From the IMG/VR virus record IMGVR_UViG_2698536408_000009, positions 1 through 5,537 of that record: DNA of 5,537 nt. The stretch is one strand, 5' to 3'. Within the stretch, counting starts at the first letter, position 1, and every line of letters begins with the position of its first letter. The notes under the pieces are model-generated. The model was not told the DNA's origin. It did not search any database and worked only from the letters and a program-made list of their open reading frames with translations. Position numbers and translations under genes: made by a program. Of the stretch, positions 2,880-5,170 are shown piece by piece. The stretch comes from a virus. Taxonomy: Duplodnaviria > Heunggongvirae > Uroviricota > Caudoviricetes.

Positions 2880-3250
2880 TGCGCCATGAGTTTATTTTAC
2901 CTTATCCGCCGACGGTGAATACTTACTGGCGACGTCGTGGCAGCACATATTTTGTATCAAAAGTTGGTGAGCGTTATCGCCGTGATGTGACGCTAATTGT
3001 TCGCCAGCAGCGGCTGAAATTAAACCTGTCCGGAAGGCTGGCGATAAAGATTATTGCAGAGCCACCGGATAAGCGCCGTCGTGACCTGGACAATATCCTG
3101 AAAGCACCACTGGATGCGCTGACGCATGCCGGACTACTCATAGACGACGAGCAGTTTGATGAAATCAATATTGTGCGCGGTCAGCTCGTTCCTGGTGGGC
3201 GACTGGGCGTGAAGATTTATGAAATCACAGGTGATAACGATGGCGCGTGA
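2879..3250 (+). CDS. rusA: Holliday junction resolvase RusA (endodeoxyribonuclease RusA family), 123 aa
   Basis: Translation [21 protein letters not shown]...[30 protein letters not shown]...[11 protein letters not shown] parallels E. coli RusA (PPSNNRYY...[30 protein letters not shown]...GGRLELTITEM). Confidence 0.85.
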
Positions 3251-3626
3251 TATTCAGCAGGTTATGGAACGGTGGGGGGCTTGGGCTGCAAACACTCATG
3301 AAGATGTATCCTGGGCGTCGATCGCTGCTGGTTTTAAAGGGTTAATTCCGTCGAAAGTGAAATCACGCCCTCAGTGTTCTGATGATGATGCAATGATAAT
3401 TTGTGGCTGTATGGCCCGGTTGAACAAGAAAAATCAGGATTTGCACGATTTGCTGGTGGATTATTACGTAGGTGGAATGACTTTTATGAGTCTGGCACGG
3501 AAACATGGGTGTTCGGATACCTGTATTGGCAAGCGCCTGCAGAAAGCGGAAGGGGTTATTGATGGCATGTTGATGATGCTTGATATCCGGCTGGAGATGG
3601 ACAGATACGTAGAACGAATTATGTAG
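3240..3626 (+). CDS. quuD: Late-gene antitermination protein Q, short Phage_antitermQ-type (DLP12 QuuD-like), 128 aa
   Basis: Translation [23 protein letters not shown]...[20 protein letters not shown]...[19 protein letters not shown]...[23 protein letters not shown] resembles the remembered DLP12 Q-like protein; ATG 3240 overlaps rusA stop; sits immediately after rusA as in lambdoid nin-Q regions. Confidence 0.65.
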
Positions 3627-3630
3627 GTGC

Positions 3631-3660
3631 TTGACCAGACACATTGTCCGGGGCTATATT
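3631..3660 (+). promoter_or_regulatory. Candidate sigma70 late promoter (PR'-like) just downstream of Q: TTGACC-18-TATATT
   Basis: -35 TTGACC 3631-3636 and -10 TATATT 3655-3660, starting 5 nt after the Q stop, as lambda PR' does. Sequence-motif call only. Confidence 0.45.
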
Positions 3661-3721
3661 CCTCACGCGCCAGCAAAATCTGGCGTCGGGATTGGAACCC
3701 CGGATAGAGACCGCGACAGAC

Positions 3722-3746
3722 ACACGCCGCGAGCGTGTTTTTTATT
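3722..3746 (+). terminator. Intrinsic terminator (tR'-like) about 80 nt downstream of the candidate late promoter
   Basis: Stem ACACGC (3722-3727) / GCGTGT (3733-3738), 5-nt loop, then TTTTT; preceded by two more hairpins at 3667-3685 and 3687-3702. Confidence 0.55.
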
Positions 3747-3871
3747 GTCGTATGCACGCGCACATCTGAATTATGGTGGGGCGCATGGGGGAGCTGAAAA
3801 GCTCGCCGGTCGGTTTCCCGGTAGTTCCAACCCTGTGCGTCTCACCACCCGATGATTGGAACCTGACGGTG

Positions 3872-3900
3872 TTGACAGTTTCAGGTTTGCAGTTTACATT
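3872..3900 (+). promoter_or_regulatory. Second candidate sigma70 promoter: TTGACA-17-TACATT, possibly serving the downstream ORF6N gene
   Basis: Perfect -35 TTGACA 3872-3877 and -10 TACATT 3895-3900 with 17-bp spacer; a weak hairpin plus T7 run follows at 3936-3963. Confidence 0.4.
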
Positions 3901-4100
3901 TCCCCGCGGTGCTCAAAACACCTCGAAAGCGGTATCCACACCCGATAGCCATGTGGTTTTTTTGTGTCCAGAATTCTTGGTTTATGACCGGGTGTGCGGC
4001 TAATACAATACCAGCAATGGAAATACGCCCGCCGACTTTCGACGGTTTTGAGCGCCCGGTCACCCTCTCAAAAGGGGTAAATCAAAATATTCGAAAGGAC

Positions 4101-4670
4101 ATGTCTATGAATCGCACGTCTATTGAAAAACTCCCGTCACTTACGCATAACCATCTTCCTGTCATGACAACAGAGCTGCTGGCTGATTTGTACGGAACAG
4201 AGCGCCAGCGTTTGACAAACAATTTCAATCGAAACAAAGAACGGTTTATAGAAGGTAAACATTTTTTCCTGATAGAAGGTGATGCGTTACGAGAGTTGAA
4301 GAACGAAAACTCTTTAAGAGTTTCTGTGAAAATTGCCCGTAACGTTCGCTCCCTCATCCTCTGGACAGAACGTGGCGCAGCCCGTCACGCCAAAATGCTC
4401 GAAACCGATCAGGCGTGGGAAGTGTTCGAAAAACTGGAAGACTGTTATTTCAACCAGAAACAGCCACCAGCGGCACAAAACACATCTATCGAAAATGATG
4501 GATGCGCATTACTGAGCCACTTCGATAAACACGGTCAGGTTGAGTTCACGGAAAAGGTACCCGCCGATGCGATGGTATGTACTCTGGAACGGTTTAAATT
4601 TTATCTGGAGCAACACGGGTGGATCGTTGCCCGTAAAGAGCAACTGGTGGAGCGGTTGATGCGGTTTTAA
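4101..4670 (+). CDS. ORF6N-domain / phage antirepressor-like protein, 189 aa
   Basis: ATG 4101 with AAGGA 2 nt upstream; N-terminal region LADLYGTERQRLTNNFNRNKERFIEGKHFFLIEGDALRELKNE...LWTERGAARHAKML looks like the ORF6N/antirepressor N-terminal domain. The 3909 upstream extension in the ORF track has no plausible start. Confidence 0.7.
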   Translation: MSMNRTSIEKLPSLTHNHLPVMTTELLADLYGTERQRLTNNFNRNKERFIEGKHFFLIEGDALRELKNENSLRVSVKIARNVRSLILWTERGAARHAKMLETDQAWEVFEKLEDCYFNQKQPPAAQNTSIENDGCALLSHFDKHGQVEFTEKVPADAMVCTLERFKFYLEQHGWIVARKEQLVERLMRF

Positions 4671-4745
4671 AAATTTTTTCCGAAAACTTTACGATCGTAA
4701 AAAGTTGAATATCCTGTTAAGAGTGGTTACTACGCCACACAGCTT

Positions 4746-4772
4746 AAACCCGCCGATGAGCGGGTTTTTTTA
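4746..4772 (+). terminator. Rho-independent terminator after the ORF6N gene (A-tract upstream, so possibly bidirectional)
   Basis: AAA-CCCGC-CGATGA-GCGGG-TTTTTTT: 5-bp GC stem, 6-nt loop, 7-T run, 76 nt after the stop codon. Confidence 0.7.
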
Positions 4773-4821
4773 TACCTGAAAAACGGCACAGGACGTTAAA
4801 CGTGCTGGTGGTCAGATGAGT

Positions 4822-4859: not shown

Positions 4860-4936
4860 GGCCCTTTAGCTCAGTTGGTCAGAGCGAGCGACTCATAATC
4901 GCCAGGTCGCTGGTTCAAGTCCAGCAAGGGCCACCA
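4860..4936 (+). tRNA. tRNA-Ile2 (anticodon CAU, lysidine type; ileX/ileZ-like), 77 nt with encoded CCA
   Basis: Hand-folded cloverleaf: acceptor GGCCCTT/AAGGGCC, D-stem GCTC/GAGC, anticodon loop CTCATAA, T-arm GCTGG-TTCAAGT-CCAGC. Anticodon and T arms match remembered E. coli ileX, so Ile2 rather than Met. Confidence 0.75.
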
Positions 4937-4937
4937 A

Positions 4938-5014
4938 CCACCACTAGCTCATCCGGATAGAGCATCAACCTTCTAAGTTGACGGTGCGAGGTTCGAGTCC
5001 TCGGTGGTGGGCCA
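4938..5014 (+). tRNA. tRNA-Arg (anticodon UCU), phage-type, 77 nt with encoded CCA
   Basis: Hand-folded cloverleaf with all stems perfect: acceptor CCACCAC/GTGGTGG, D-stem GCTC/GAGC, anticodon stem TCAAC/GTTGA with loop CTTCTAA, T-arm CGAGG-TTCGAGT-CCTCG. Diverged from host argU; unusual C1:G72 first pair. Confidence 0.7.
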
Positions 5015-5016
5015 GC

Positions 5017-5092
<76 letters not shown>

Positions 5093-5095
5093 TAT

Positions 5096-5170
<75 letters not shown>

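Follow-up and report, generated by a model that had tools for sequence, protein, structure and literature searches.

Predicted tandem antisense-RNA cassettes ahead of an AnrP-like ORF6N gene in a Shigella sonnei prophage

Described switches and the ORF6N gene

In phages P1 and P7 the immI operon produces an antisense RNA, cut from the operon's own leader, that pairs through two short boxes with the downstream ribosome-binding site (RBS) region; this pairing blocks antirepressor synthesis, and a second copy of the boxes lies upstream. The operon (c4-icd-ant) was reportedly worked out by Citron and Schuster (1990), Biere et al. (1992), Heinrich et al. (1995) and Hartmann et al. (1995). Here we analyse an ORF6N gene with a comparable leader, located at positions 4107-4670 (+ strand) of a Shigella sonnei prophage fragment, IMG/VR record IMGVR_UViG_2698536408_000009, whose whole 5,537-nt stretch we call the window. 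Like immI, the window carries boxes a1 and b1 upstream and a2 and b2 at the RBS, with box sequence predicted to set specificity and an antirepressor-type gene under control. It differs from immI in that the RNA next to the gene belongs to Rfam family RF02221 and not to RF01695, in that there is no icd-like coupling open reading frame (ORF), and in that the ORF6N protein has neither an AntA nor an ANT domain.

The closest studied relative of the ORF6N protein is AnrP (STM2616/SL2578) of the Salmonella prophage Gifsy-1, with 49% identity and 64% positives over 184 of 187 amino acids (E 6e-58). In Gifsy-1 the promoter PisrK drives transcription of anrP, anrP expression raises the mRNA levels of antQ and SL2581 and induces the prophage independently of the isrK locus, and IsrK RNA supplied in trans raises the long Gifsy-1 transcript about 8-fold (Hershko-Shalev et al. 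2016, PMC4825925). The two genes are orthologous and their loci syntenic: the antQ-isrK-orf45-anrP region and the window share Q, a promoter, a 77-nt IsrK with its terminator, a C4-like RNA (STnc1160 in Gifsy-1), a 187-aa ORF6N protein and a tRNA, and both have AUGs at +107 and +119. Gifsy-1 differs in its Q82-like Q protein, in the overlap of the orf45 stop with the anrP start (ATGA) and in the pairing of C4 box a' beside the anrP Shine-Dalgarno (SD) sequence, a junction that in the window is replaced by a second cassette (3872-4099). The window gene is an AnrP-like representative of a known, experimentally studied kind, that of the isrK locus and C4-type control. The preliminary description had suggested that it might act as an antirepressor or regulator, in good agreement with AnrP, which switches on the Q operon and induces its prophage, and that it could influence other prophages, which is plausible. 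We put at roughly 70% the probability that the gene encodes an AnrP-type regulator that turns prophages on and is itself gated by RNA through a logic like that of P1 immI.

The gene is an intact open frame in the six-frame ORF list. Residues 15-99 match the Pfam ORF6N domain (PF10543; E 9e-21, 74.4 bits, cut-off 27.8), confirming the N-terminal domain that had been predicted, and PHROG 2379, annotated 'anti-repressor', covers the whole protein (E 3e-85). At E<=0.1 ORF6N alone was matched in Pfam, and P22_AR_N/P22_AR_C, AntA and ANT (KilAC) domains were not found. The start had been placed at 4101. The SD sequence AAGGA (4095-4099) lies 1 nt from ATG 4101 and 7 nt from ATG 4107, the Escherichia coli EC12 homologue has no ATG at the position equivalent to 4101, RefSeq homologues are 564 nt long and all homologues align from the methionine at 4107; the start is therefore ATG 4107, 6 nt further downstream. 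Longer forms of 214-253 aa annotated in some records, beginning at GTG 3909 or ATG 4018, were rejected because their frames are not conserved: the frame through the sRNA-Xcc1-type RNA described below, inside which the annotated forms of 214-222 aa begin, is open in just 7 of 44 loci, and the EC12 and Nil2 leaders contain in-frame stop codons. At least 1000 contigs encode the identical 187-aa protein, recorded as 'ORF6N domain-containing protein [Shigella sonnei]', and relatives with 64-94% identity are common in prophages of E. coli, Salmonella, Citrobacter and E. albertii.

Leader RNAs and their pairing boxes

The 480 nt between Q and the ORF6N gene, overlooked in the preliminary description, are packed with RNA genes. 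Rfam identifies four families in this leader, each above its gathering score: c4-a1b1 at 3654-3706 (50.1 bits, cut-off 46.7), isrK at 3667-3743 (77.5 bits, cut-off 50), C4 antisense RNA at 3769-3852 (71.0 bits, cut-off 45) and sRNA-Xcc1 (RF02221) at 3986-4069 (77.4 bits, cut-off 53). Gifsy-1 and three E. coli prophages share the order of the isrK, c4-a1b1 and C4 matches. Two strong sigma-70-like promoters (3631-3660 and 3872-3900) and terminator-like sites at 3722-3738 and 4746-4767 (terminator scan) agree with the earlier suggestion that the gene has its own promoter and terminator. Judged from the sequence, the leader reads as two tandem antisense-RNA cassettes ahead of the ORF6N gene, and its RNA genes most likely decide whether the ORF6N protein is made.

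Cassette 2 (3872-4099, + strand) opens with the promoter at 3872-3900 (TTGACA, a 17-nt spacer and TACATT; 10/12 consensus matches), followed by a putative short decoy RNA at 3908-3963 that was read from the sequence; similarity to the antB leader of Stx phages starts at 3908. The decoy comprises a hairpin, GGUG-CUCAAAA-CACC, with box a1 at 3912-3918, box b1 (UCGAAAG) at 3923-3929 and a weak terminator, CCACA...UGUGG followed by U7 (3936-3963), whose stem shows compensatory changes relative to Nil2. Downstream lies the 84-nt sRNA-Xcc1-family RNA (3986-4069), hereafter Xcc1-type RNA, with the loop b' CUUUCGA at 4036-4042 and a' GUUUUGAG at 4045-4052. The target region in the ORF6N leader spans 4067-4099 and contains a2 (CUCAAAA, 4067-4073) and b2 (UCGAAAG, 4091-4097), the latter overlapping the SD sequence. 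The loop CUUUCGA has an exact 7-nt complement at 3923 and again at 4091, and a2 and b2 are exact complements of a' and b'.

These boxes co-vary three ways. Six loci checked by hand have six loop sequences, each of which fits its own upstream box and its own RBS box (6/6). The b1/b'/b2 sets are UCGAAAG / CUUUCGA / UCGAAAG in cassette 2 of the window, UCAGUAG / CUACUGA / UCAGUAG in EC12, GCAAGUAG / CUACUUGC / CAAGUAG in Nil2 and P13374, CUACUAG / CUAGUAG / CUACUAG in E. coli VL7S7, UACGAAG / CUUCGUA / ACGAAG in Acinetobacter phage 4316 and CCAAAAA / UUUUUGG / CCAAAAA in Pasteurella phage Pmp3. A scan of IMG/VR with the conserved Xcc1 core gave 120 loci, 44 of them unique and with a downstream ORF. 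Prediction of RNA duplexes between long segments returned uninformative long duplexes, and exact boxes and a comparison of cognate with non-cognate pairs were used instead. A perfect loop complement of at least 6 nt within -25 to +3 of the downstream ORF start is present in 93% of cognate pairs vs 4.8% of non-cognate pairs, across about 25 different loop sequences. An upstream CUCAAAA-type loop is found in 43 of the 44 loci, and in 24 of the 26 loci with a strict sigma-70 match 10-14 nt separate the end of the -10 element from the a1 loop, as in the window.

Based on this co-variation, which identifies the pairing partners, we read the Xcc1-type RNA as a C4-type antisense RNA. It shares with C4 the closing stem, two hairpins and a 3' ACCC. 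The Rfam C4 model (RF01695) gives no match on 3986-4069 at E<=5, and because this covariance model misses the Xcc1-type RNA the likeness is architectural and not demonstrable homology. We lean towards the view that the family RF02221 forms a second structural class of P1-C4-like immunity RNAs, in which a leader antisense RNA with a swappable 7-nt loop is combined with a promoter-proximal decoy. Such RNAs may gate translation of ORF6N, Bro-N, KilA-N, Rha and P22 Ant genes in phages from Enterobacterales to Acinetobacter and Pasteurella. Were this correct, the Shigella gene would stand under two such cassettes in tandem, and the orphan C4 and Xcc1-type RNAs of this defective prophage could confer immunity in trans against incoming phages with the same boxes.

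The window RNA belongs to the same Rfam family as sRNA-Xcc1 of Xanthomonas campestris (Chen et al. 2011). In the literature sRNA-Xcc1 is a trans-acting, virulence-linked integron sRNA, unlike the RNAs of the window and the 44 viral loci, which are encoded in leaders and have loops matched to the RBS of the next gene. It has been noted upstream of an ORF6N gene in APSE phages and, in Xanthomonas integrons, upstream of the toxin gene symE. In the searchable literature, with subscription journals outside it, we found such notes of co-location and no description of sRNA-Xcc1 as a C4-type regulator; the reading is therefore possibly, not certainly, new. If pairing works as in P1, the sRNA-Xcc1 matches in Xanthomonas, Xylella and symbiont phages would need re-reading.

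Among 40 genes that follow Xcc1-type RNAs, the domains Bro-N (9), ORF6N (8), KilA-N (7), Rha (6) and P22_AR_N (3) were found. KilA-N and Bro-type genes are often toxic on expression and, together with the predicted tight antisense control at the RBS and the position of sRNA-Xcc1 ahead of symE, this would suit a module resembling a type I toxin-antitoxin or abortive-infection system, with a toxic ORF6N protein silenced by antisense RNA. Such a module is very unlikely in view of the behaviour of anrP, which on its own, in a strain without the locus, gave normal colonies, toxicity requiring AntQ (PMC4825925).

Cassette 2 is 87% identical to the antB leader of the Stx phages Nil2, 2851, P13374, phi191, TL-2011c and POCJ13, and over positions 3908-4457 the identity to the leader and gene of Nil2 antB is 79%. 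The layout of decoy, Xcc1-type RNA and RBS is common to both, while the b box differs. In the Stx phages the order isrK-C4-antA-promoter-decoy-Xcc1-antB is found in the nin region, upstream of Q, whereas the window is without antA, lies downstream of Q and encodes a protein with a C-terminus other than that of the Stx antB proteins. Judging by this order, the window looks like the Stx-phage arrangement with antA deleted.

Cassette 1 (3631-3862, + strand) is of the isrK-C4 type and was compared among eight such loci. Its promoter, the PisrK equivalent (3631-3660: TTGACC, an 18-nt spacer and TATATT; 10/12 consensus matches), precedes an IsrK-type short RNA at 3667-3743, which corresponds to the a1/b1 decoy of C4 according to the Rfam isrK and c4-a1b1 matches and the terminator scan. 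This RNA contains b1 (GAUUGGAAC, 3690-3698), a1 (GAGACC, 3707-3712) and a terminator stem (3722-3738). The C4 antisense RNA (3769-3852) presents a' (GGUUUC, 3812-3817) and b' (GUUCCAA, 3824-3830), and b2 (3854-3862) is an exact repeat of b1. Here too the co-variation is three-way, between b1 in the loop of the second IsrK hairpin, b' in a single strand of C4 and b2 just after C4, with the sets GAUUGGAAC / GUUCCAA / GAUUGGAAC in the window, GAUUGGCGUC / ACGCCAA / GAUUGGCGUC in Gifsy-1, GAUUCGAAC / GUUCGAA / GAUUCGAAC in phi346 and GAUUGCUAC / GUAGCAA / CUUGCUAC in P13374. The b1-b' pairing of Gifsy-1 has been verified by the compensatory mutations G28/C162 and G31/C159 (PMC4825925). The loop of the second C4 hairpin, a', complements a box abutting the SD sequence of the ant gene in Gifsy-1 (a'/a2 GGUGAU/AUCACC), in the E. 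coli loci L003 (GGUUGAU/AUCAACC) and L001 (GUUUCGA/UCGAAAC), in Nil2 (GGUUUC/GAAACC) and in P13374 (CCUUGAUUG/CAAUCAAGG).

In the window and in EC12 the likeness to other cassettes ends just past b2, near 3871, where the cassette 2 promoter starts. Of the cassette 1 target region the window keeps b2 alone, the a2 box, the SD sequence and the ant start being absent. Although deprived of its cis target, the C4 RNA of cassette 1 retains intact a' and b' boxes; to judge from these, it could act in trans on prophages with UUGGAAC and GAAACC boxes, such as E. coli L001 and L003. The AUGs equivalent to those of orf45, positioned as in PMC4825925, belong to a 76-codon ORF at 3773-4003 (+ strand). Across loci the orf45-equivalent ORFs range from 14 to 76 codons, only in Gifsy-1 does such an ORF overlap the ant start as ATGA, and the ORF is probably not a conserved coding gene in the window. 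Translational coupling of the orf45 type was rejected for the window, where the equivalent ORF stops at 4003, 104 nt before the ORF6N start.

The promoter TTGACn-17/18-CUAUAUU is kept in 8/8 isrK cassettes, including ones without an upstream Q, and its -10 element and the transcribed region are the same behind three Q types and where Q is absent. A PisrK-type promoter kept even without Q is therefore part of the cassette. Promoter-RNA-ant cassettes also occur in nin regions, including those of Stx phages, and beside integrases, with no Q upstream, and a C4 (17) or Xcc1-type (27) RNA lies 35-90 nt upstream of the gene in 44 of 80 ORF6N loci from different species, a lower bound since nhmmer uses sequence only. 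The preliminary description had located the gene between Q and the phage tRNAs, which is correct, and had called this a cargo slot. The position after Q stands, and Gifsy-1 AnrP has the same layout; the cassette is, however, self-contained, and Phage_antitermQ is the upstream gene in only 10 of 62 species-representative loci, the commonest single context but not a rule.

These data bear on the alternative that the ORF6N gene is plain late-operon cargo, transcribed like stx from a Q-modified late promoter, with incidental leader RNAs. In favour of cargo, Q precedes the gene and the tRNA and lysis genes follow it (in S. sonnei: Q, ORF6N, tRNAs, holin, lysozyme), PisrK begins 5 nt past the Q stop, the cassette 2 promoter is the only other promoter before the gene, and the rise of the long Gifsy-1 transcript with IsrK in trans fits Q-dependent read-through if PisrK doubles as pR'. 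We nevertheless consider late cargo rather unlikely, as it does not explain the cassettes that have no Q upstream or the constancy of PisrK across Q types, and as the co-variation of leader RNA and RBS would not persist were the leader RNAs incidental. Late transcription and an RNA gate are not mutually exclusive.

Proposed regulation of the ORF6N gene

We propose the following scheme for the RNA-gated regulator. Transcription from 3872-3900 would yield the short terminated RNA with a1 and b1, and read-through transcripts would include the Xcc1-type RNA, whose b' loop and single-stranded a' would pair with a2 and b2 on the ORF6N leader. Because b2 lies on the SD sequence, this pairing should block translation. 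The short decoy RNA, with the same boxes, would titrate the antisense RNA, as IsrK does in trans in Gifsy-1, and thereby release translation, and the output would be set by the balance between termination at 3936-3963 and read-through. Cassette 1 would be the older of the two and, having lost its own ant gene, would supply only read-through transcripts that pass two terminators and the orphan C4 RNA. The ORF6N protein, once made, would de-repress the early/Q operon of a lambdoid prophage. We infer here the sign of regulation (the antisense RNA represses, the decoy relieves), whether pairing occurs in cis or in trans, RNase P processing of the RNA, and the direct target of the protein, which may be a repressor or DNA. 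Phage P4 provides a further parallel, in that its CI RNA is a processed leader RNA which pairs with the flanking repeats seqA, seqB and seqC (PMC4825925). The P4 system differs from our proposal in that it acts by premature transcription termination of replication genes and not by RBS occlusion of an antirepressor-type gene.

Several observations weigh against this scheme. The direction of regulation is borrowed by analogy from the P1/P7 C4 system and from the logic of SD occlusion, and the gate at the window locus itself is predicted from the nucleotide sequence. Gifsy-1 IsrK activates through an upstream ORF, and the corresponding orf45-type coupling is not conserved in the window; the same study assigns no definite role to the processed C4-like RNA (STnc1160) and calls AnrP 'predicted anti-repressor-like' (PMC4825925). 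The C-terminal domain of the window protein is a different allele from that of AnrP (~25-30% identity), and its target may therefore differ. Finally, the gene resides in a defective prophage that carries IS2 upstream and IS4 in the portal region, and inspection of the 8 kb upstream in S. sonnei chromosomes reveals no repressor gene.

Antirepressor-type proteins time the waking of prophages, on which toxin release and gene transfer hinge in Shigella, Salmonella and Shiga-toxin-producing E. coli. The IsrK/AnrP switch of Gifsy-1 is not specific to Salmonella; it exemplifies a modular arrangement (promoter, decoy RNA, antisense RNA, ant gene) that is widespread. Should pairing work as in P1, a few nucleotides per cassette would constitute a specificity code, from which cross-talk and immunity between co-resident prophages could be predicted.

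Protein modules and the host prophage

An alignment of 38 relatives divides the ORF6N protein into a conserved ORF6N part (residues ~1-115) with the invariant core LILW.ERGAARHAKM.ET..AW.VFE.LEDCYF, a variable linker (~116-130) and a C-terminal module of ~60 aa (~131-187). The full-length AlphaFold2 model likewise consists of two domains joined by a disordered linker (pLDDT 74.5), and the C-terminal domain modelled alone has a beta-beta-alpha-alpha topology (pLDDT 83.2). This module exists as distinct alleles, the Shigella/E. coli and Gifsy-1 types being ~25-30% identical, and is also found fused to Rha and AntA domains. That the C-terminal part would resemble nothing recognisable had been anticipated: a Pfam search of the C-terminal 76 aa gave no match at E<=10, and the last ~60 aa have no match to PDB sequences or known folds. 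The only near-match of the model, the winged-helix-like DNA-binding domain of Dachshund, is not significant (E 0.54).

This near-match would favour a KilA-N/ORF6N-type DNA-binding factor that activates early promoters directly instead of inactivating a repressor. Iyer, Koonin and Aravind (2002) are said to have regarded ORF6N as a KilA-N-like DNA-binding domain, which points the same way. On balance direct activation appears doubtful, since no DNA target is known, PHROGs annotate the family as anti-repressor throughout, and a module common to AntA- and Rha-type proteins suits a specificity module that binds proteins. In addition, trans-acting antirepressors have been described in Gifsy phages (PMC3121763).

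Within the ORF6N gene, a 106-nt stretch (4347-4452) that encodes the core RSLILWTERGAARHAKMLETDQAWEVFEKLEDCYF is 88-96% identical at the DNA level in Gifsy-1, VL40, phi346 and the Nil2 antA and antB genes, with flanks too diverged for BLAST. Going by these identities, conservation of the DNA appears to exceed what protein constraint alone would predict, and the stretch may serve as a recombination joint for swapping C-terminal modules. In Nil2 (locus L004), antA carries three tandem copies of a ~30-nt unit (ttgcgggttactttaagtaactcacaaaat) at 5440-5550, in the variable linker of this ORF6N-type gene, and at the protein level this insertion is also present in P0023 and P0160.

The upstream neighbour of the cassettes is the antiterminator Q gene (3219-3626, + strand; Pfam PF06530, E 2.7e-52; PHROG 79). 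Downstream of the ORF6N gene lies an intrinsic terminator (4746-4775, + strand) formed by a hairpin at 4746-4767, with an 8-bp stem containing 5 G-C pairs, and a T-run. The hairpin bears a faint resemblance to leaders of amino-acid operons (Trp_leader, E 0.018, below the cut-off), and the sRNA isrJ, which directly follows anrP in Gifsy-1 (L006 3588-3662), was not matched in 4671-4775 of the window. ARAGORN detects five tRNAs from 4860 onward, among them the phage cluster Met/Ile(CAT)-Arg(TCT)-Thr(TGT)-Gly(TCC) at 4860-5170 (+ strand). In the E. coli VL40 prophage, too, an ORF6N gene is followed by these four tRNAs (Ile-Arg-Thr-Gly).

As far as base 5170 the window matches S. sonnei chromosomes at 99.6-100% identity, and the order in those chromosomes is IS2, DnaB-like helicase, RusA, Q, ORF6N, tRNAs, holin, lysozyme, Rz, HNH, terminase and a portal gene interrupted by IS4. 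At positions 1-1130 an element of the IS2 type, whose transposase orfB (213-1118) has rve and HTH_21 domains, abuts the DnaB-like helicase gene and stands in place of the phage early/immunity region. A prophage broken by IS2 and IS4 and missing its early region would be compatible with an ORF6N gene that is a functionless relic, kept only because S. sonnei is a young clone, and the sameness of S. sonnei genomes here is barely informative on selection. A relic is nonetheless improbable: no disruption affects the ORF, the two promoters, the two antisense RNAs or any of the pairing boxes, many prophages of E. coli, Salmonella and Citrobacter carry intact members of this allele family, and action in trans on other prophages does not depend on a cognate repressor in cis.

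For an 85-aa coiled-coil-like ORF located between the helicase gene and rusA (2622-2879), the only matches are to the C-terminal ends of PHROG 2565 and PHROG 2539, two families of unknown function. Exact agreement with the S. sonnei prophage extends through the last base of tRNA-Gly (5170), after which the window continues into chromosomal thrT-tufB, where the references enter the holin gene. This junction reflects either recombination between phage tRNA-Gly and chromosomal glyT or the joining of sequences at this repeat during assembly; no tRNA-Gly/thrT junction was found among 185,579 species-representative genomes. The chromosome aligns to the phage Thr(TGT)-Gly(TCC) pair (5017-5170) in two pieces, which span 727 bp vs 521 bp in the window, and on this alignment the pair looks like a captured copy of host thrU...glyT minus the tyrU segment.

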